Virus record (IMG/VR): IMGVR_UViG_3300032038_000005
Location: 32,001-96,000 of that record
DNA from: a virus
Lineage: Duplodnaviria; Caudoviricetes
DNA length: 64,000 bases
Direction: 5' to 3' (one strand)
Shown here: in pieces, positions 11,078-31,187 of the stretch
Numbering within the stretch: the first letter of the stretch is position 1
Layout of the letters: each line of letters begins with the position of its first letter
Position numbers and translations under genes: made by a program
The notes under the pieces: generated by a model
Databases searched by the model: none
Told to the model about the DNA's origin: nothing
The model's input: the letters and a program-made list of their open reading frames with translations, nothing else

Positions 11078-11108
11078 AGTGGGGCATATGCCCCACTATA
11101 TTTTTTTG
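11078..11108 (+). terminator. intrinsic terminator
   Basis: agtggggc-atat-gccccact followed by a T-run. Confidence 0.75.
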
Positions 11109-11123
11109 TTTGGAGATGATGTT

Positions 11124-14054
11124 ATGGCAATGATAGAAGAAAAGACAAACAATCCCATGTCGGAATATCTGTTGAAATTACAATTGATTGTATCCAATAC
11201 CGAATTTATGAACAAAGAAGAATCCGACAAATATGAGACAATGGAAACTCGTATGAATGGTGAAGCATATGTAAATGCGATATTGAAAAAAGATGAATTC
11301 GATTCATATGATTGGTCAGATGTTGCATTAAAGCGCGCATTTAATGAATTACATTATCCAGATGACTTAATTCGGAAATACATTTTTCATCCAGAATATA
11401 TCCCAACAAACGTGAAAAATGCATTGACGGAGAAAGCACGAGCTGTTCGTATTGAAACATACAAAGAGCAAAACAAATACCACATAAACTTGACGGGGAA
11501 ACCATTAGAGGGAGTAGATCCCGATATTCCAATTCCCGATGATTTTTTTGCAATCTATGCAAAAGAAGGTAGTATCCATAAAGATCAATTGGTTCATACT
11601 TTGCCCGCAAAATACATGGAACTCTTTATGAATTCAAAATACTATAAAGAGATGCTACAGCAATATCCACATGTGGAATATTTGAGACATATGGGAACAT
11701 ACTCCATTCCCATTGAAATCTCTCGTCGTGCACGTGATGGGGATATTCTATTAATTAATGAATCTAAGCTACATACGCATCATGAGACATTTGGAAATGT
11801 ATCTGTTTCTCCGGAAATTGTTCATGAATTCACATCGGTTTATAAGAAGACACAACGTTATATCTACGGGACATTGCGAGGTGATTTCTCTTACATCTAT
11901 CCGAATTATAATTCCTTGATTCGATACTTGTCAATCTATATGACAATTGGACAATGTATGAATCAATTCATGCACAAATCTACCAAGTTGATTTACATGA
12001 ATAACCAAATTGCGAATGATTATTTTTCATTATATGGATTACCATCTGTCTTGATGGAGATGAATTCATTAACAAAATTCTTGAAAAAATTTCGGTTACT
12101 GTTAATGGACAAAGGAACAAATACTGTGTATCGAGTGAAAGACTTGATTGGTTATGAATATACGGATATCTACACATTGGTCATGGTAAAACAACAGGTG
12201 TTTGAGAATGGATATCCCATTTATTACAAAGATCCAGAGACTGGAAAATCGGTACCAAAACAGAATATCGTGTTTCGAAGAATGGGGACAGCTGATGACA
12301 ACGCTTCTTATTTCCAATTTAAGAATGAGACAAAGTCTTATACCGTAGAAGAAATTACATCAGGAGATCCTCGATGGTGGAATACACCAGAAGTAGAACG
12401 AATGATCAATGATATGAATTATACCTTATCCAATTCAAAGTATATTCAATTATCCACCATGATGAGTATGGATGATATTTGGTGGCAGACTTGCATTCTG
12501 TTACGTGGTTTATTAGACCATAAGAATGAAACGAAGTATACAGAAATTGAGATTTCACAGTCCGTCAATGGAACATCCACCATCAGCGTCTTTGATGCTG
12601 TTCTATTGCTAATCATTATGATGACTTGGAGCCATACGGATTTCAAGAACAATCATTTTGATGGAAACTTACATATTCCGAATGGAATGTTTAACAATGT
12701 CGCAACTTGTGTTGACATGTTATTCAATGGATTGGAAGCAGATGGTACTCCGAAGGAATTAAAACCCGGATTACCGTACAAAGTCGCCTCATTCAATTTC
12801 AATATCAAGAATGAATCGATCAAGAAATACAATGCCTTATCGACATATGCATATCTTGTTCCTGACATATTCATGCCAATGTTGGATACAATCTTAGAGC
12901 GTGAGTCTGCAAATATTGGAGAAGTCCTCATGCATGACGTTAAATTGTTATATGACTATTTGGGAACGAAATTAAGAACAGCATCAACCATTCATGAATT
13001 CCGTCAAGTTACAGATGCTTACAATTGGCTATTCTTGGTTGATCCCTTACGTGACTGGTCGGATGACACACAACAGAATGTGGAAACATTACTCATGCAA
13101 TCTTATGAGTTGAAATCCTATGAGTGGTATGCATTCAAGCATCTATTCCTTGGAAATGAATCATCCAATGCATCTATTCCATTCTTCTATAATGATGCGA
13201 CATCACCAACACAAATTCCCGTATATCGACTTTTAAATGAGAATGTATTGCAAGTGGATCCCGCATTCTCCAATCCAGACTACATGAATCAATTCATTAC
13301 TACTGTTGGAAAATGGAAATCCGAATTGATTGAACGATCTGATCTGTCAAATATGATCAAGATGCATTATCAATCCATCATCCAAGATAAAGTCTTATTG
13401 GATGTCTCCAATTCACAATATGGACCAAAATCATTTGAAGCATTGCTATTCCGAAACAATCCTACATTATATCGTGGATTACAACAGATGAAAGCTGACG
13501 GAGATCAACTGTTGATTCTGATGCGGTCGATCATCCGTGCTTTGGAATCGTATGCCAATCATCCACTCCCCGCATTGGAGTTTGAAGCAACGGGAAAAGA
13601 TCAGTATATCAATATCTTGAAAGAAGTCATCACTTACTTTAAATCATACATGGTAGAATTTACTAAGAGTGAGTTTCGATATCTCATGGGTGGGTTATTT
13701 GATCACGGTGGAAATTCGAATATGCTATTATTGTTTGATGAGATCAATCATATCACATTACGCATTTTACCTCGAGATGCATTACATTTGTATGATGTGT
13801 CATGTGCAAAAGCGCGAGTCATTGTCAAAGAGGATCTCTCGAAAATGTTATATGATGAAGCACTATTCCAAATCAAAACGACATACAAAAAATTGAAATC
13901 CTCACCATATGAATTGTGGTTTGATAATGGAGAGTGGATTGATCAACAACCGTTTGATGACTTAACGGATGATTCGGTAATCATTGCAAAATTAACCAAT
14001 GACAATTCGGGGACATACAAAATCATCATCAACAAAGAAAATGTGTTAAATTAA
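11124..14054 (+). CDS. large protein, probable virion structural (baseplate-type) protein
   Basis: ~976 aa, AT-rich codon use like the late genes; function inferred from jumbo-phage context only. Confidence 0.55.
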   Translation: MAMIEEKTNNPMSEYLLKLQLIVSNTEFMNKEESDKYETMETRMNGEAYVNAILKKDEFDSYDWSDVALKRAFNELHYPDDLIRKYIFHPEYIPTNVKNALTEKARAVRIETYKEQNKYHINLTGKPLEGVDPDIPIPDDFFAIYAKEGSIHKDQLVHTLPAKYMELFMNSKYYKEMLQQYPHVEYLRHMGTYSIPIEISRRARDGDILLINESKLHTHHETFGNVSVSPEIVHEFTSVYKKTQRYIYGTLRGDFSYIYPNYNSLIRYLSIYMTIGQCMNQFMHKSTKLIYMNNQIANDYFSLYGLPSVLMEMNSLTKFLKKFRLLLMDKGTNTVYRVKDLIGYEYTDIYTLVMVKQQVFENGYPIYYKDPETGKSVPKQNIVFRRMGTADDNASYFQFKNETKSYTVEEITSGDPRWWNTPEVERMINDMNYTLSNSKYIQLSTMMSMDDIWWQTCILLRGLLDHKNETKYTEIEISQSVNGTSTISVFDAVLLLIIMMTWSHTDFKNNHFDGNLHIPNGMFNNVATCVDMLFNGLEADGTPKELKPGLPYKVASFNFNIKNESIKKYNALSTYAYLVPDIFMPMLDTILERESANIGEVLMHDVKLLYDYLGTKLRTASTIHEFRQVTDAYNWLFLVDPLRDWSDDTQQNVETLLMQSYELKSYEWYAFKHLFLGNESSNASIPFFYNDATSPTQIPVYRLLNENVLQVDPAFSNPDYMNQFITTVGKWKSELIERSDLSNMIKMHYQSIIQDKVLLDVSNSQYGPKSFEALLFRNNPTLYRGLQQMKADGDQLLILMRSIIRALESYANHPLPALEFEATGKDQYINILKEVITYFKSYMVEFTKSEFRYLMGGLFDHGGNSNMLLLFDEINHITLRILPRDALHLYDVSCAKARVIVKEDLSKMLYDEALFQIKTTYKKLKSSPYELWFDNGEWIDQQPFDDLTDDSVIIAKLTNDNSGTYKIIINKENVLN

Positions 14055-14064
14055 GAATATGATG

Positions 14065-14090
14065 ATCCGGGGGCATATGCCCCCGGAATC
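14065..14090. terminator. bidirectional terminator hairpin
   Basis: ccgggggc-atat-gcccccgg between convergent genes. Confidence 0.7.
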
Positions 14091-14094
14091 AAAT

Positions 14095-14268
14095 TCATTT
14101 TGTAATATCAATTGTGTGGACAATATGAGAATACTGTCCTGGTTGGATACTATGAGAGATTAAGAACATCTGTTCCATTTTCAGTGTCGCCATAATTTCT
14201 TGTAACATCAATACGAACACATCTCTCATTCCTGCATCAATATACGCGTCCAGCTCATCGACCAAACA
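14095..14268 (-). pseudogene. orphaned C-terminal copy of sbcC (Walker B to end)
   Basis: Translates CLVDELDAYIDAGMRDVFVLMLQEIMATLKMEQMFLISHSIQPGQYSHIVHTIDITK*, colinear with the SbcC end FLVDECDGYLD...CFVVSHHIEGDQY...; no SD or start codon covering the Walker B. Confidence 0.8.
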
Positions 14269-14269
14269 T

Positions 14270-15544
14270 TCAGAAATATAAAGATGTAATATCTTTCCAA
14301 ACAGCTTTATTTCTTATTTTATTTACGTCATAATATTTTATTTGATCATATCCCTCATCTTTTAATATATTTAATACAATCGATGTTTTCATATTATTTT
14401 CAATTAAAAGTTTACATATATGATGTACATCTTCTTCCGATATCTTTCTATTTAAATTTTTGAATTCAAATGGCTCAAATTTATCAGTAATATCTTTATA
14501 TGTATGCTTATTCTTTATATTTTTAATGTCCCCATATGAAACGTCATGAATGTCATATATGTTTTTTAATGTATTTAACACCGTCTTTGGGTTACCCTCT
14601 GTTTCTGGAGAACAAAGCAGTTTCCATATTAATTCAACCAATTCAGACGAAAATCTCTGATGTAATTTAGGGAATTTTGCATCAGTAAGTTGTTCTGTTA
14701 TACTCGCATATGCATCTTTTCTCTTTATCGCATTAACATGTCCAATGTTTATATAATGATATCCCATTGAGTGTAAGATCTTAAGGGTCTTCATCATACT
14801 ACCAGATGTCTTTTCAGATTGTAATAAATTCCATATGAGTTTTACATCATCTTTACTCAAAATCGTTTTATTAAGTTCTGTCATTCTGGCATGCTTCAAA
14901 TTATCACTACAGGAACACCATTCCAAATTTTTCCAATAATTATTTATTTTACAACCATCAATATGATTCACTTGTAGACTTTCGTAATCGTCAATGGGAT
15001 TTAAGAATTCAAAAGCGACTAATCTGTGAACGCTAACGGTATAATGTGATCCATTAATACAAATACAACGTTTTGAATATCCATTTGCATCAATATAATT
15101 CGACATTAATTGATTACTGTGTGTGCTATATACATTTCCAAAATTTGATATTCGATAATCCTCAGTCTTATATTTCGGATACGATATTAATTTCCATTCC
15201 TCGACGTCTTCTTCCCATCTGAGATTATCAACATGATTGTTTCTGTTATCTCCGTCTATGTGAACAACTTTAACACGTTTTCCGACTAATTCTTCTGGAA
15301 CCGGAATAAATGTCATAGCGAGTAAGTCATCAATTGGGAATAATTTCATTTTAGGAATAGGTGGACCATTAGATGTGTCCACCTTTAACAGAAACATTGC
15401 AAAATCATACCCATTTGTAGAATGATAAGATGCCTCGTACGGAGTGAGCGTTTCATCTGTCAATGCTCTGATTCTTCCCAGTGTTGATAATTCAAAACCA
15501 TGCTGAATTTCTTCATGGATTAAAGCTTTCCAAATTTCTCTCAT
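14270..15544 (-). CDS. free-standing HNH homing endonuclease (tandem NUMOD4-HNH modules plus repeated C-terminal DNA-binding units)
   Basis: EIWK..STLGRI, HIDGDNRNNHVDNLRW; EEWK..ISNFGNV, VHRLVA, VNHIDGCKINNYWKNLEW; much more AT-rich than the flanks. Confidence 0.9.
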   Translation of the reverse strand: MREIWKALIHEEIQHGFELSTLGRIRALTDETLTPYEASYHSTNGYDFAMFLLKVDTSNGPPIPKMKLFPIDDLLAMTFIPVPEELVGKRVKVVHIDGDNRNNHVDNLRWEEDVEEWKLISYPKYKTEDYRISNFGNVYSTHSNQLMSNYIDANGYSKRCICINGSHYTVSVHRLVAFEFLNPIDDYESLQVNHIDGCKINNYWKNLEWCSCSDNLKHARMTELNKTILSKDDVKLIWNLLQSEKTSGSMMKTLKILHSMGYHYINIGHVNAIKRKDAYASITEQLTDAKFPKLHQRFSSELVELIWKLLCSPETEGNPKTVLNTLKNIYDIHDVSYGDIKNIKNKHTYKDITDKFEPFEFKNLNRKISEEDVHHICKLLIENNMKTSIVLNILKDEGYDQIKYYDVNKIRNKAVWKDITSLYF

Positions 15545-15735
15545 AAATGAACCTCAACTTTCAATCTTTAATTGGTAAACACAATTATCATATTGATCTC
15601 CTTCAATATGATGTGATACCACGAAACACTGTTCAATTTTCATAGTATTCATTACATTTTGTAACATCATGACGTATAAATTAGACTGTTCCATATCGAG
15701 ATATCCATCGCACTCATCTACTAAAAATACATTGT
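14270..15735 (-). mobile_element. HNH homing cassette carrying a replacement 3' end of sbcC
   Basis: AT-rich block made of the new sbcC tail plus the HNH gene, sitting between the sbcC body and its displaced tail; left boundary approximate. Confidence 0.65.
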
Positions 15736-18082
15736 AGTGTGTTAATGACGAAGCCAACGACAATGACAGTGCCAATGATAATAACGTACTCTCAGACTGA
15801 GAACCTGTACGAATGTCTTCAGATTTGTTGGTTCCACAACGGAATGGAAGTGTAAACGTGGTTTCATCAATGGTGGGTTTCAACAATTCAATTTCACCAT
15901 CGTACATCACATCCAACAATCTATTTGCCATGCTTAATGCTTCGGAGATTTTGTCACGAATGGCAATGACGGGTTTTCCCTTGGTGGATGAGGTTGCTTC
16001 GGAGATAATCTTATAACGTTCATCCATGGTCAGATGTTTCTCAATCTCGTCAACGGTTCTGACATATTGTTTATCCGCATTCTCCAGTGTTTCCAACTGT
16101 TTTGCAACAATCTGTACATGAGACTGGATTTGGACATACTGCTCATGGAGTTGACCATATTCCAATTCTGCATTTGACAATTGGGTTTGTTGACGATTGA
16201 GTTTATCATATCGAACTTGCACATCTCCAATGTCAATGTTCTTGATGGATGATAATAGTACCTTCTTTCTGTCAATTTCAGATAATGCTTGTTTGTATTC
16301 GTTTACCAATCTTTCACAATCGGAAATCTGTTGCTGTAATTCCGCAATCTGTTTCTCCAATACTTCAATGGGAACATCACCATTTGTTGTGTCATTCTGC
16401 ATCAGATATTCAATATCTTTAATACGTGCTTCCACATCACTCAGTTGTTTGATGAGTTGGTTATAGTGTTCTTTGTTAACGGCAATCTCCATCCATTTCT
16501 TGATGAAGTCTTCATCGATACCTGAATGACCGTTTTTCAATCGGATTAACACACTCTTTTCACACATATCATTTTGCAGTTCTACCGGAATCTCGATCCG
16601 AAGTAAACGACAAATGGTCTGATAATTCTTCCATGCATGTTCGATGTTCTCCAAATCATACATGGTGAACTTTCCTCTGGATACAGATTCATATGAATCA
16701 AAGTATTGATGCAGGCGTTCAAACGTATTCCGATATAAGCAATTGGGATAACGACAATCCTGTTCTGATACCAAATCTCCACCAACAGAACTCAACATAT
16801 GACGAAGTCGAGAGATAGCACTCTTCTCTTTTTCAGAGTCTAATAACACACTACTTTCTTGCATCAGAAATGCATTGACATCAATTCCCTTTAATAGCAT
16901 ATCACAGAACAATTCCAGATGTTCTTTACTCAAACACAATGTGATTTCTTTACATGTGTCATTGACAGATTTGGCAATAGACAACATACTGGAGAAGACA
17001 GCAGATGAAGCTTGTACATCCAAATCTCCAATCTGTAATTGAGCAATCTCATGTTCCAATCGCTCTTTCATCTGTACCATGTTCTGATAATCCCCAATGA
17101 TTCTTTGACGAGACATCATGTTTGTTTGGAGATGATTCTTTTTCTCATATACGGCATCTAAGTCTTTCATGAGTAACATTCGCTGGCTACTTACTTTTCC
17201 CATCTCATCTGTCAATCGCAACTGTTCTTCCATCAAACTCTCATACAGATTCATGTCATACTGTCCCAATTCCGCAACGACATTTTTGTATGTTACCAGC
17301 TTATTTTGCAACTCCATCAGTTCATTTCCTAAATTCAGTTGCCGTAATGACGTAATCATTCCTGTTAATTGGTCAAGCCGTGTTTTCATCTGTTGCATGG
17401 ATTCTGTCAATGACACATGTTGTACACGAGTTTGTTCCAGTGTCGTTCTCAATGTTTCATATGAGCCATAGCTCTGCAGCAAGAATTCCTTTGTTCTGGT
17501 TAATGACGTAATCAGCTTGCTGGTGTAACGATAATCTTCCGTGGCCAATTTGTGAATCTTGTCGTAGATATCGATCCCCATTGCTTTGTTCATTAATGTC
17601 TTACGCTGTGTTGCGTTCATATTGGCAAACGATGTCAACTGTGTTCCATTGATAATAAATTGGAATACATATCGATTTAAACCAAACACCTTTTCCACAA
17701 CAGCATTGAATGTATTCACACCACCGTTTGCATTTAACTCCACACCGTCTTTCATGATACTGGATACGACGGTATGGCCATTCTTGTTCGGGTTATAGGT
17801 GTGGGTGATATTGTATACTTCTCCATTTACTTCGTAAACAATATTCTTAATCCCGATTTCACCTTTGAGAATCTGAGGCATGTCATTCCGTTCATCCCCA
17901 TTCAGATTCACCGAAGAGAACGGATGTAACTTCTGTAACAGTACAGTTTTCCCACAACGATTTCTGCCATAAATCTGAATGATGGGTTTGTCGATTCCGT
18001 CGAAATGGAATTCCACTTCATGCTTCCCCATTGCCGCATACACGTCAGCAAAGTTCACCAATTTAATATATACGATTTTCAT
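15554..18082 (-). CDS. sbcC: SbcC/Rad50-like ABC ATPase (recombination nuclease subunit)
   Basis: Walker A GRNRCGKT, long coiled coil, signature variant GSQSE, Walker B FLVDE, H-switch VSH. Confidence 0.9.
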   Translation of the reverse strand: MKIVYIKLVNFADVYAAMGKHEVEFHFDGIDKPIIQIYGRNRCGKTVLLQKLHPFSSVNLNGDERNDMPQILKGEIGIKNIVYEVNGEVYNITHTYNPNKNGHTVVSSIMKDGVELNANGGVNTFNAVVEKVFGLNRYVFQFIINGTQLTSFANMNATQRKTLMNKAMGIDIYDKIHKLATEDYRYTSKLITSLTRTKEFLLQSYGSYETLRTTLEQTRVQHVSLTESMQQMKTRLDQLTGMITSLRQLNLGNELMELQNKLVTYKNVVAELGQYDMNLYESLMEEQLRLTDEMGKVSSQRMLLMKDLDAVYEKKNHLQTNMMSRQRIIGDYQNMVQMKERLEHEIAQLQIGDLDVQASSAVFSSMLSIAKSVNDTCKEITLCLSKEHLELFCDMLLKGIDVNAFLMQESSVLLDSEKEKSAISRLRHMLSSVGGDLVSEQDCRYPNCLYRNTFERLHQYFDSYESVSRGKFTMYDLENIEHAWKNYQTICRLLRIEIPVELQNDMCEKSVLIRLKNGHSGIDEDFIKKWMEIAVNKEHYNQLIKQLSDVEARIKDIEYLMQNDTTNGDVPIEVLEKQIAELQQQISDCERLVNEYKQALSEIDRKKVLLSSIKNIDIGDVQVRYDKLNRQQTQLSNAELEYGQLHEQYVQIQSHVQIVAKQLETLENADKQYVRTVDEIEKHLTMDERYKIISEATSSTKGKPVIAIRDKISEALSMANRLLDVMYDGEIELLKPTIDETTFTLPFRCGTNKSEDIRTGSQSESTLLSLALSLSLASSLTHYNVFLVDECDGYLDMEQSNLYVMMLQNVMNTMKIEQCFVVSHHIEGDQYDNCVYQLKIES

Positions 18083-18113
18083 ATGCAAAACCTCCATTTT
18101 TTTATTTTAAGAC

Positions 18114-18198
18114 ATATATACTATTTTCCTGATAACACCCTAATGATGTATATTTAAAGATAAAAAATATATTTTAGATATACATAATATTCACATGA
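18114..18198 (+). promoter_or_regulatory. tandem putative early promoters (plus a divergent copy at 18135-18153 toward sbcC)
   Basis: ATATATACTATTTTCCTGA (18114-18132) and ATACATAATATTCACATGA (18180-18198). Confidence 0.55.
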
Positions 18199-18267
18199 GA
18201 CAAGCAGGTATCACCCTGTTGTCATATATCAAATCTATATCTCTATATAAGAAAGGAAAGATGCTCA

Positions 18268-18978
18268 ATGAGCGAAGAAATCAGAAACATGACACCCGAA
18301 CAGCTGCACGATTACTACTGCAAACTCCGTGAAAACCAGCTCCGCCAGTGGCAGATTCTCAACAACCCGATGTTGATGAAGACAATCCCGGAGATTACTG
18401 CGACACTCCTGTGGAAAGAATTCAAGTTCGGCTTCTCGGAACTCTCTGACATTCCGATTGTGTTCGTTGTTGGATGGAAGCATGTCATGGAATATGTGAG
18501 AGCACAGAACGTTCCGGAGTTCTCTGTCGACATCTGTGGTATCTCCGTAGAGTACACGACTGAATACTCTGAGACAGAAAAGAACTCGAATATTGTGCCA
18601 CAGCTGGTGCACAAGCGCATTCCTCTGTTCCGTGAACGTCAGCACACAGATGTCATCGGCTCCAGCTTCAAGAACACGTTGCTCCAGAAATATGATTCAT
18701 GGAGAACGGAGAATCTGACAGAGACCATCTCCAAACTGGAGAACGAGGTATTCGCAGAACTGCAGAAAGACTATGCGATCGACGTCGTAGTCGCACCGAC
18801 TATCTTCTGCACCATGGCTGCAATGTATGCCGCCGGTGTACAGATTGCAATGGAGACCCACGAGGAAGTCAATATGTACAACATCTTCACCATTGAAGTA
18901 TTCAACGGTGACCAGATTGTACTCTCGCCCGCTGCTATTATGAAGCAGATTATGAAAGGAGATGCAAAGAAATTATGA
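18268..18978 (+). CDS. hypothetical protein
   Basis: 236-aa ORF, GAAAGGA SD. Confidence 0.8.
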   Translation: MSEEIRNMTPEQLHDYYCKLRENQLRQWQILNNPMLMKTIPEITATLLWKEFKFGFSELSDIPIVFVVGWKHVMEYVRAQNVPEFSVDICGISVEYTTEYSETEKNSNIVPQLVHKRIPLFRERQHTDVIGSSFKNTLLQKYDSWRTENLTETISKLENEVFAELQKDYAIDVVVAPTIFCTMAAMYAAGVQIAMETHEEVNMYNIFTIEVFNGDQIVLSPAAIMKQIMKGDAKKL

Positions 18979-29420: not shown

Positions 29421-31187
29421 TGGCAAAAGATAACATGACGGTTGAAAAAACTTCAACAGGTGCAATCATTCATGAACCAACATTGGAAGTGAAACGTAAA
29501 GCATTACAATATTTCTCATTACCAGATCCACAACGTGAATACTTTATTTATTCCGGATCGGATATTAATAAGAAACCAATCTTTGGACATGAACATGATG
29601 TACTATATATTTCATCTGGATTCTTAAAGATTAAAGATCCAGTCATTGATAATCTACGACTGCGTGCGACAAGAGTCACATCACGTGATGGTGCTCCAAT
29701 TGAGATTGAAATGAATCGTAAACCAAGATCACAATTACAAGTAGATTGTATCCAAATGATGGTAGAAACAGGTTATTCCAAAATGACATGTGAAGTAAAG
29801 CCTGGTGTTGACTTCCGGCACCCGTATCGAGTAATCGGTATGTAAAATTACCCTTTGAATTGCTGGGACACTTTAATGCTCATTGTACTACAACATGATG
29901 CCGAATCAGGCATGAGTGTGAATGTGACGAAAGTAAAAAGAAACAATGAGATGGTACATGGTTAAATCCTAAATACTAATAAGGAAAAATAAGTAATCAG
30001 CAGCGAAGCTCTGAACAGGAGAACGTTCAACGACTATCCATGATGGAGTAGGAATGATATTCCGAAGCGGAGGGCATCCCATTGGGATGATGATATAGTC
30101 TAAACTAAAATAAAGCGGAAAGACATTTATGGCATTATCTGTCATCGCACAACTTGGAAAGAAACCATTGATAATTGCACCAACTGCATTATTGAAGAAT
30201 CAATGGATTGAAAACTTTACGGATCTGGGTGTACCGGAATCCGATATTGCAACACGTATTTATGATGGACCAAATAAGAAAGTATGTGTTGTCACGATCT
30301 CCGCAATCGAGAATGAACTCAGAAAAGATTGGGAGGGATTGCTACATGTGTTGGCTCAAGCAAACTATGGAATCCGTATTACAGATGAAGCACATTTACA
30401 TTTGAAGGGCGTACTGAAGTTTGATGCCATTGCCAATATCAAACGTAATTACTATTTGTCAGCAACCTTAGGCAGATCCGATGAATCAGAAGATGATGTT
30501 CTTAATAGAGCTTTATTAGATGCTGACAGATTTGTTGGAGATAAGCGTTATGAAGAATATCAAGACGAATACATCAATGTGTATTTACAAGATATCTACT
30601 ACAATGCTTCACGAGAAATCTGTGACGAGCATTTCAAATATGGCAAGAAAGGTTTGATTTCAGCAACCTATTATAGAATGCTGATGGACTATCAACATGG
30701 AAAACCTTTTTACAATAATGCAATGCGTATGGTAAAGATTGCACAAAAGATCAAAGTGCAAGGAAAAGTATTATTGCTTTTACCATTACTTGATGCAATT
30801 CAACAAGTCAAAGAAGAGATGAAAAAAGATCCATACTTTGATAAATTAACCATCTCTTGTGTCGATGGACATATGAAACAATCAGAGAAGATGGAAGCAT
30901 TAGAGAAGGACATTATTTTATCAACTACCATGTCAATGGGAACAGGAGTCGACGTTTCTAACTTAGGAGCAGTTGTAAACTTTGATCAGAAGTCCTCTCT
31001 CATTATACTCGAACAGATTGTGGGTAGACTTAGAAATCGTGGATTTCAAACATACTACATTGATGTGTGTGACCATGTGAAATATGCCAGAGCATTTGAA
31101 AACTGGGGAATGAAGCGTCGTCAGTATATGCCTTACTTTCCGGGAGTTTCCAGTAAGCTTAAACTGTTACCAAAAATCATGTGTTAA
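29420..31187 (+). CDS. SF2 (UvsW-like) DEAH helicase, spliced: exon 1 29420-29808, exon 2 30116-31187 (486 aa)
   Basis: Splicing restores Walker A KPGVGKT; also DEAH, LSAT, GTGVD and QIVGRLR motifs. Confidence 0.9.
29809..30115 (+). ncRNA. group I self-splicing intron (IA2-like), no internal ORF
   Basis: Exon end ggtgU pairs with IGS Gcacc (29818-29822) via a U.G wobble; P10 ttccg/cggaa; P aattgctggga, Q aatcagcagc, R gttcaacgacta, S tgatatagtc; P3, P7, P7.1, P7.2, P8; terminal G at 30115. Confidence 0.92.

Follow-up and report, generated by a model that had tools for sequence, protein, structure and literature searches.

Homing endonuclease genes that replace the 3' end of a host gene and leave the old end behind as a relic have been described from fungal mitochondria and yeast. 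The mitochondrial cases are the mORF gene hybrids found in atp6 of Allomyces macrogynus and in atp6, atp9, cox2 and nad3 of Glomus sp. (PMC3630166); the yeast cases are the WHO elements at FBA1 (Coughlan et al. 2020, PMC7282813). A preliminary description of the locus analysed here had drawn the parallel with C-terminal replacement in fungal mitochondrial elements, and the parallel is sound, both architecture and mechanism being documented there (PMC3630166). Intronless homing of the T4 type, by Seg and Mob proteins, includes insertions that split genes (mobE in nrdA of Aeh1, mobA at T4 gene 39/60 and seg in gene 43), and the HNH Mob enzymes nick their targets (PMC2988022). A review of these systems mentions neither duplications nor relics (PMC2988022), and no phage precedent for tail replacement with a relic was found in the literature searched, the coverage of which was incomplete and is no proof of absence.

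The window, a stretch of 64,000 nucleotides, comes from an uncultured giant phage represented by a metagenome-assembled IMG/VR record. The features of the locus lie on the minus strand and follow one another in that direction as sbcC body, foreign tail, HNH gene, relic and hairpin. The sbcC-like ORF is listed at 15554-18097, with a start that is probably at 18082 (MKIVY), as in relatives and in P0001. Its body (15725-18082), from Walker A to the signature motif, is native to the phage lineage and runs into the in-use tail (15554-15724), which is foreign and AT-rich and holds Walker B (LVDE), the D-loop, the H-loop (SH) and the stop. A GAGG Shine-Dalgarno-like motif, read from the sequence, overlaps this stop and is followed by a 9-nt spacer before the ATG of the HNH gene (15545-15555 together). 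The HNH gene itself (14270-15544), of the HNH_3/NUMOD4 homing-endonuclease kind, begins 9 nt past the sbcC stop, is free-standing and intact, and encodes 424 aa with no stops in frame. The relic (14095-14265), a second copy of the sbcC end, begins 4 nt (ATGT) past the HNH stop and comprises 56 codons (14098-14265) and a stop (14095-14097). Its frame is still open but is not that of the HNH gene, behind which it lies 4 nt out of register; it has neither a Shine-Dalgarno motif nor other translation signals. A palindromic GC hairpin (14067-14086) separates it from a convergent 991-aa gene on the plus strand (11079-14054).

The sbcC product has the organisation of an SbcC/Rad50 ATPase: Walker A, signature, Walker B, D-loop and H-loop motifs, with a long coiled-coil insert between the ATPase halves. 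It belongs to PHROG 77 (SbcC-like, E 9e-38) and is 25% identical to SbcC of AR9/PBS1 over 98% of its length; GKT, GSQSE, LVDE, the D-loop aspartate and SH are all conserved in the alignment. The Pfam SMC_N match is under the cutoff (25.8 vs 40 bits). The in-use tail keeps every invariant residue of Walker B, D-loop and H-loop, that is, every catalytic column, and has, at conserved columns, three substitutions that are unusual but conservative.

That a frame directly behind the HNH stop duplicates the present SbcC end without gaps had been noticed in the preliminary description, and the frame at 14098-14265 bears this out. In BLASTP the in-use tail and the relic share 24 identities and 38 positives over 54 positions with 0 gaps (E 4e-18), and the pair is also recovered in a genome-wide self-tblastx. 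At the nucleotide level the two are 59% identical, have no long identical run in common and differ at 10 of the first 30 nt past the junction. The duplication does start at Walker B as described, but the relic does not start at C-LVDE: its homology to sbcC begins at the Leu codon of LVDE, the Cys codon is not homologous to sbcC, and the relic frame upstream has no sbcC similarity. GC and GC3 are 0.389 and 0.42 for the sbcC body and 0.375 and 0.41 for the relic; for the in-use tail they are 0.304 and 0.29, and for the HNH gene 0.307 and 0.25. Composition pairs the relic with the body and the in-use tail with the HNH gene, whose AT-richness it had been said to share.

Five close relatives were compared (L002, L004, L007, L024 with protein P0278 and L025 with protein P0275). 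Their sbcC bodies are 72-85% identical over the last 188 aa, where the body in the window is 82% identical to L002/L007, 85% to P0275 and 49% to P0133. None of the five (0/5) carries an HNH gene after sbcC; these alleles are empty, and the hairpin and then the convergent gene come straight after the sbcC stop. The C-terminus of HNH-less relatives had been predicted to be closer to the relic than to the in-use tail, and this is what is found: their native tails are 80-95% identical to the relic in amino acids and 74-85% in nucleotides, vs 39-46% and 56-58% for the in-use tail. In the tail tree the relic falls with L004/L002/L007 (support 87/87). A tree of the 188-aa body region was poorly resolved, and identities and path lengths were relied on instead; by these the body is nearest to L002/L007. 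The body, the relic and the downstream 991-aa gene belong to one lineage (65-85% to L002/L007/P0275), and the relic can be identified by these comparisons as the original sbcC tail of the phage lineage. The insertion is a recent one, since the relic differs from its relatives almost only synonymously and the HNH frame is intact. Against the relatives pN of the relic is 0.075-0.12 vs a saturated pS of 0.76-0.89; it is below the pN between two functional relatives (0.14), and the terminal branch of the relic in the tail tree is 0.043.

The in-use tail groups elsewhere in the same tree, with the distant sbcC clade of P0133 (support 95/92), on a long terminal branch (0.74). An exhaustive HMMER search together with a body-region search gave P0296, P0328, P0335 and P0133 as its best matches, at 52-54%, and it shares with these four proteins the derived states DECDGYLD, Y.MML.N.M and EQCF..SHH. 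No HNH gene stands behind sbcC in those sampled phages whose tail is of the in-use type; these distant phages identify the donor clade and do not refute the reading of a replaced end. The donor itself would be unsampled, as the best donor-like tail is just 54% identical. A word-indexed donor search with the tail region gave only 4 proteins, and peptide patterns of the in-use tail had no match in metagenome and viral contigs of IMG/VR and the JGI metagenomes. The 5' and 3' parts of sbcC are discordant, the body being 82-85% identical to L002/L007/P0275 and the tail 39-46%, and the GC3 shift agrees. On these alignments the expressed SbcC is seen to be chimeric, its body native and its tail derived from a distant clade of sbcC. 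Codon alignments place the 5' junction no closer than ~12 codons before LVDE, since several clades share the stretch of ~10 codons that precedes LVDE (ASSLTHYNV); the import may reach about 15760. A purely local origin of the two tails, in which the sbcC end was tandemly duplicated in situ, the upstream copy diverged fast and the HNH gene was inserted later between the two, would fit the long terminal branch and the three unusual substitutions of the in-use tail. The grouping with P0133 rather than the relic and the derived states shared with the four distant proteins speak against it, as does the GC3 of the in-use tail (0.29), treated as equal to that of the HNH gene and unlike the 0.41-0.42 of body and relic. 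Such a duplication is already disfavoured and has next to no probability.

The hairpin behind the relic folds with -26.5 kcal/mol (z -5.7), and equivalent hairpins lie directly 3' of the native sbcC stop in L002, L004 and L025. It was missed by a terminator consensus scan (no T-run) and is clear on folding. These matches identify it as the ancestral sbcC terminator, now behind the relic, where the operon terminator had been placed from the sequence alone. Around the in-use stop 51 nt fold with just -2.7 kcal/mol, no more stably than shuffled sequences, and form no stable hairpin, so that sbcC and the HNH gene probably share a transcript; the HNH gene is probably translated from it through its own GAGG site.

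Could the in-use tail and HNH gene be an intron or other RNA-level element, with the real SbcC ending in the relic? The relic frame is still open, a splice of ...AATGTATT to TTTGGTC... would be in frame with an 'intron' ending in G, and the phage has a group I intron elsewhere. That intron (29798-30113) scores 67.4 bits with Rfam and served as control, vs no Rfam intron match at E<=10 in 14000-15850 nor at E<=1 in 13500-18500. No group I ribozyme core (P3-P9) flanks the HNH ORF, where just 9 + 4 non-coding nt are available for one. The in-use tail is moreover a bona fide end, with all catalytic residues and a place among the native tails of other phages, and the open relic frame is explained by recency. 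Splicing onto the relic is extremely improbable by these in silico results, which accord with the earlier view of an intron-less element. An Rfam scan of the related loci L009, L018, L019, L021 and L022 likewise found no introns.

The record being a metagenome-assembled virus genome, contigs of two co-occurring phage strains might have been joined twice within sbcC. No independent contig with the junction was found, and the junction 40-mer is absent from IMG/VR and the JGI metagenomes. Evidence to the contrary is a 259,834-bp contig on which an identical chimeric protein of 842 aa is recorded, though this may be the same assembly. Against GenBank phages, 13500-18500 gives no megablast match and protein-level matches only, to SbcC of the AR9/PBS1 type. 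The two tails, at 59% nucleotide identity and with no long identical run, offer an assembler nothing to collapse on, two joints would be needed that both flank exactly one intact gene, and the body, relic and 991-aa gene share their lineage (65-85% to L002/L007/P0275). An assembly chimera is very unlikely.

The HNH protein has the beta-beta-alpha-metal HNH motif, with its His general base and Asn residues, preceded by a NUMOD4-type segment. It matches Pfam HNH_3 (1.2e-8, 34.9 bits, cutoff 24.8) and NUMOD4 (1.6e-6, 28.7 bits, cutoff 23.4), belongs to PHROG 59 (E 2.4e-45) and aligns with I-HmuI (PDB 1U3E) over residues 125-218 (E 1.3e-10). The catalytic motif H...NN...N is kept relative to 1U3E: the H of DH/NH, the NN pair and the distal N. 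A first, weak NUMOD4/HNH_3 module is followed by a second, strong one and by three C-terminal repeats of ~60 aa, which suggest an extended DNA-binding region. There is no paralog in the 202-kb record of the phage and no relative in IMG/VR; the closest homologs, 38-46% identical, are at other loci. At eight loci of the five homologs with the best context tblastx detected no flank duplication, the window serving as positive control.

The locus combines an intact downstream endonuclease ORF, a foreign 3' end, a native fragment beyond it and empty alleles in relatives. The foreign tail and the HNH gene form a unit that sits where close relatives carry the native tail alone, and the native tail, from the Walker B Leu codon and with its old terminator, has been pushed behind the HNH gene. 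We consider it likely that an intron-less homing-endonuclease cassette of the 3'-end-replacing type entered sbcC with a foreign tail. The preliminary description had proposed such a replacement, and relatives, trees and composition agree with it. In co-infected cells the HNH enzyme would nick or cut sbcC alleles of the relic type, at the Walker B codons or close to them. A double-strand break is an assumption, since enzymes of the I-HmuI type make nicks. The left break end would then invade a donor sbcC in the conserved signature-motif/Walker B region and copy the donor tail and HNH gene, and the copy would be rejoined to the right break end by microhomology if this was a first-time event. Alternatively, if the donor already had a relic, pairing with it may have served for the rejoining, the route taken by WHO elements in yeast. 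The difference of the imported tail at 10 of 30 nt would shield the new host from its own nuclease.

The cassette is known from one copy. No second copy that would be evidence of mobility was found, in searches that covered records less close to the genome of the window and whose sampling was limited, and self-tblastx of the genome gave no other convincing pair of HEG-flanking relics. This single occurrence would also fit ordinary recombination, homeologous or illegitimate, in which a distant phage contributed its sbcC end and an HNH gene that merely lay downstream, the nuclease not targeting sbcC; the junction would lie at Walker B just because the nucleotides there are most conserved. In-use-type tails are native elsewhere without an HNH gene, and relatives of the HNH gene occur at several unrelated loci. 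One of them, in L009, lies 1.2 kb upstream of an sbcC homolog, so that this HNH lineage is present in the neighbourhood in any case. However, the start of the duplication coincides with that of the relic to within <=12 codons, with no detectable loss from the recipient, as break repair at that place gives. Between the imported tail and the relic the insert has room for just the nuclease gene, with 9 nt left on the side of the tail and 4 nt on that of the relic, and the identical architecture is endonuclease-driven where tested (PMC7282813; PMC3630166). Recombination with the HNH gene as a passenger is unlikely for these reasons, and the homing cassette is preferred.

More tentatively, and with rather less than even confidence, the cassette may be an active WHO-like phage homing element whose relic serves as downstream homology arm for homing into new sbcC alleles. 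The Walker B/D-loop/H-loop modules would have been swapped repeatedly, and the Cys5/Gly7 state beside Walker B would be a nuclease-resistance haplotype; Cys5 and Gly7 are strictly linked and are seen in tails of three different backgrounds, of which the mosaic P0285 is one. If this is true, the Walker B/D-loop/H-loop module of Rad50-type ATPases has been exchanged repeatedly among gut jumbo phages and the resistance haplotype has spread by short conversion tracts. The locus indicates that phage homing endonucleases can enter the coding end of an essential gene by way of a replacement end, with no intron, intein or split gene. The layout marks a probable nuclease target in the catalytic core of a Rad50-type ATPase and may be a route for catalytic modules between distant phages. 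For an I-HmuI-like enzyme that is uncharacterised, the relic is predicted to be a sensitive target and the in-use tail a resistant one. For annotation, the short unannotated ORF after the HNH gene is a relic, and the functional sbcC is a chimera of two histories, which misleads single-gene phylogenies. The mechanism is already known from fungal mitochondria and yeast, and the value of the phage case lies in generality, not in a new principle.

Among known systems, I-HmuI, an intron-encoded HNH nickase of Bacillus phage SPO1, is comparable in the enzyme, with homology across the NUMOD4-like strands and the HNH motif. A further likeness is that the phage of the window is large and, judged by sbcC similarity, of an AR9/PBS1-like gene pool. 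I-HmuI differs in being intron-encoded and of 174 aa, whereas the phage HNH protein is not intron-encoded, has 424 aa and adds a degenerate N-terminal module and three C-terminal repeats. T4-type Seg and Mob genes are likewise free-standing phage HEGs beside or inside essential DNA-metabolism genes, and their spread by break repair in co-infection with co-conversion of flanks (PMC2988022) is a likeness that would extend to the present cassette. T4-type intragenic insertions split the gene into two polypeptides (PMC2988022), whereas sbcC stays whole through its replacement end and a relic remains.

The WHO elements share more of the layout: (i) a nuclease gene accompanies an upstream 3' end that confers resistance, a property that is predicted for the phage tail; (ii) integration replaces the 3' end and moves the old end downstream as a fragment; (iii) trees of the 5' part of the gene disagree with those of its 3' part (PMC7282813). 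The start of the fragment at the cleavage position (PMC7282813) counts as a fourth likeness, given the presumed cleavage site in the phage. WHO proteins differ as intein-like LAGLIDADG/zinc-finger nucleases with demonstrated allele-specific cleavage (PMC7282813), and they form clusters of successive elements, whereas the phage has one element, one relic and an HNH enzyme. The mORF hybrids have the same order of host-gene core, foreign C-terminus, endonuclease ORF and native C-terminus relic; their inserted C-terminus also clusters with another lineage, and splicing is not needed (PMC3630166). In both, the relic is closer to the element-free relative (91-98% in nucleotides there vs 74-85% in nucleotides and 82-95% in amino acids in the phage). 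Their nucleases are LAGLIDADG or GIY-YIG enzymes, often fused in frame, whereas the phage has an I-HmuI-like HNH enzyme in a separate cistron with its own ribosome-binding site. The host is mitochondrial there and a dsDNA jumbo phage here, and the target in the phage is a Rad50/SbcC ATPase gene.

The window, a portion of a 202-kb IMG/VR virus record, carries on its minus strand an SbcC/Rad50-like gene (15554-18097; PHROG 77 'SbcC-like', E 9e-38) whose product shares 25% identity with the SbcC ATPase of Bacillus phages AR9/PBS1. The longest sbcC open reading frame opens at 18097 (MEVLHMKIVY...); the methionine of MKIVY (18082) is the start in all relatives and in P0001, the database copy of the product (842 aa), and is therefore likely the true start. 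A 424-aa HNH reading frame (14270-15544, minus strand) with Pfam HNH_3 and NUMOD4 above threshold begins 9 nt past the sbcC stop and is preceded by a GAGG motif. Four nt (ATGT) past the HNH stop, and in a different frame, lies a 56-codon open frame (14098-14265, minus strand; stop 14095-14097) with similarity to the end of sbcC. The preliminary description regarded this frame as a relic that aligns without gaps to the present SbcC end; the layout it described is confirmed, and the alignment to the last 56 codons of the in-use gene is gap-free (24/54 identical, E 4e-18). Misjoined contigs could also produce two tails, but such a chimera demands two joints precisely flanking one intact gene, and a long identical run between the tails is absent. 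Outside the window (G000:C1:146266-150915), genome-wide self-tblastx picks out three paralogous coding segments in tandem; their aa identity is 37-58% in the coding frame and reaches 84% in other frames, and they have no relation to this cassette.

The native end was sought among IMG/VR sbcC loci of related phages (L002-L007) and ~250 homologous proteins retrieved by two large searches, with contigs also fetched for the most informative homologs. The nearest relatives are the phage loci L002, L004, L007, L024 (protein P0278) and L025 (P0275). Across the 188 residues immediately preceding Walker B they share 72-85% identity with the window, and all of them lack an HNH gene behind sbcC. A GC hairpin and a convergent gene of ~990 aa come after the sbcC stop in L002, L004, L007 and L025; the window's convergent downstream gene is 65% identical to its L002/L007 counterpart. 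The tails of these five HNH-less relatives were expected to be nearer the relic than the tail in use (15554-15724), and they are: 82-95% identical in protein and 74-85% in DNA to the relic vs 39-46% and 56-58% to the tail in use. The sbcC body, relic, hairpin and downstream gene therefore belong to one set, and the insert is the tail in use plus the HNH gene. These comparisons support the earlier interpretation that a homing endonuclease cassette would have swapped the 3' end of sbcC and left the old end behind.

The duplication had been said to begin at Walker B, and the first codon of the relic with homology to the relatives is indeed the Leu codon of the Walker B motif LVDE; the 21 nt upstream, at the HNH gene's 3' end, resemble the relatives only at chance level. 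The 5' junction falls between LVDE and the signature-motif helix, in which the DNA of the window still tracks L002 and P0275, and can be placed no finer because the intervening ~10 codons (ASSLTHYNV) are found in several clades. Within this uncertainty, the replaced segment and the relic share a starting point, which is the footprint expected of break repair at or near Walker B. Just past Walker B, Cys at tail position 5 is always paired with Gly at position 7 (11/11 among 124 SbcC tails). This state occurs in the window (15700-15724, minus strand) and in P0285, P0288, P0291, P0301, P0303, P0307 and P0356, and spans three different tail backgrounds; P0285 combines an in-use-type start (LVDECDGYLD) with a tail that is otherwise relic-type. 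The linkage could reflect structural covariation, or else mark a resistance haplotype or a short conversion tract.

The tail in use is as AT-rich as the HNH gene (GC 0.304 vs 0.307; GC3 0.29 vs 0.25), as previously described, and the relic resembles the sbcC body (GC 0.375 vs 0.389; GC3 0.41 vs 0.42). A maximum-likelihood tree built from 17 tails joins the tail in use to P0133 (95/92) and places the relic beside L004/L002/L007 (87/87), where its branch is very short (0.043). The best matches to the tail in use among the 124 tails (P0296, P0328, P0335 and P0133, 52-54%) share with it DECDGYLD, Y.MML.N.M and EQCF..SHH, and come from phages whose SbcC bodies are only 49-57% identical to the window. 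This tail type is native in the readable donor-type loci L018, L021 and L022, none of which has an HNH gene or relic at sbcC. Composition, tail tree and donor-type clade point to a donor that was only distantly related within this phage group; in-situ duplication and divergence of the sbcC end is at odds with the same data. Peptide-pattern scans of metagenome and viral contigs did not recover the donor itself. The main live rival is recombination with a distant phage merely bearing an HNH gene behind sbcC, a reading that stays alive because only one copy of the cassette is known. In the P0133 phage, sbcC (L018:1-1611) reads as two ORFs (1-465, 607-1611), the ~140 nt between them lying in another frame; P0133, the 3' ORF, recurs on a second, independent assembly (L019), and Rfam detected no intron in L018 or L019.

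Between the relic and the L004/L002 tails, synonymous sites are saturated (pS 0.76-0.89) and pN is 0.075-0.12, below that between the functional L002 and L004 tails (0.14). For nearly all the time it has been diverging, the relic was therefore under purifying selection, and this points to an apparently recent insertion of tail and HNH gene; a recent insertion would explain why the relic frame is still open. The tail in use has lost none of the invariant residues (Walker B D and E, D-loop D, Q, F, H-loop S-H) and deviates conservatively (A>G, L>M, I>V) at 3/16 strongly conserved columns, and the chimeric SbcC is plausibly a working ATPase. The terminator reported past the relic corresponds to a strong palindromic hairpin (14067-14086; -26.5 kcal/mol, z -5.7), in the position of those after the native sbcC stops of L002, L004 and L025, and no comparable hairpin follows the in-use stop. 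This suggests that one transcript, closed by the ancestral terminator, probably covers sbcC, the HNH gene and the relic. An in-frame splice removing the insert from RNA and joining body to relic is conceivable on paper but has no support: Rfam introns are absent from 13500-18500 at E<=1 and 14000-15850 at E<=10, the same search picks up the phage's own group I intron as a positive control (Intron_gpI, 29798-30113, plus strand, 67.4 bits, E 1.9e-16), and the non-coding part of the insert is only 13 nt.

The HNH protein has an intact reading frame and catalytic motif and is clearly homologous to I-HmuI, the intron endonuclease of SPO1 (1U3E, E 1.3e-10). It contains two apparent NUMOD4/HNH_3 modules, the first weak (residues 3-30, 91-110) and the second strong (115-156, 172-215), followed by three C-terminal repeats of ~60 aa (226-424). 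Carrying two nuclease modules on one polypeptide could be relevant to double-strand break formation. Its closest homolog, P0005 (38% identical, 459 aa), is encoded by a free-standing gene (L009:3687-5066, plus strand) ~1.2 kb upstream of the sbcC start on a related phage contig (sbcC L009:3-2453, minus strand), flanked by a small gene on one side and, downstream, by a gene cut by the contig end; the lineage therefore occupies a second site in the sbcC neighbourhood.

A review of T4-family phages gives intragenic homing endonuclease gene insertions only as gene splits (nrdA, 39/60, 43), with duplication or relics unmentioned (PMC2988022), and no phage precedent for tail replacement with a relic was found in the literature searched, whose coverage was incomplete. 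The window offers a well-resolved, apparently recent case that falls in the catalytic core of a Rad50-type ATPase from a phage, and its layout gives a clear prediction of what the uncharacterised HNH enzyme would target. The mORF gene hybrids of fungal mitochondria share this architecture; the endonuclease of the Allomyces atp6 hybrid has been shown biochemically to drive element mobility and, in Glomus, the inserted C-terminus is transcribed together with the gene core (PMC3630166). For the yeast WHO elements at FBA1, allele-specific cleavage and replacement of the 3' end at each integration have been worked out, and the downstream fragment acts as a homology arm (PMC7282813). We file the window cassette as a further example of the layout known from fungal mitochondria and yeast.
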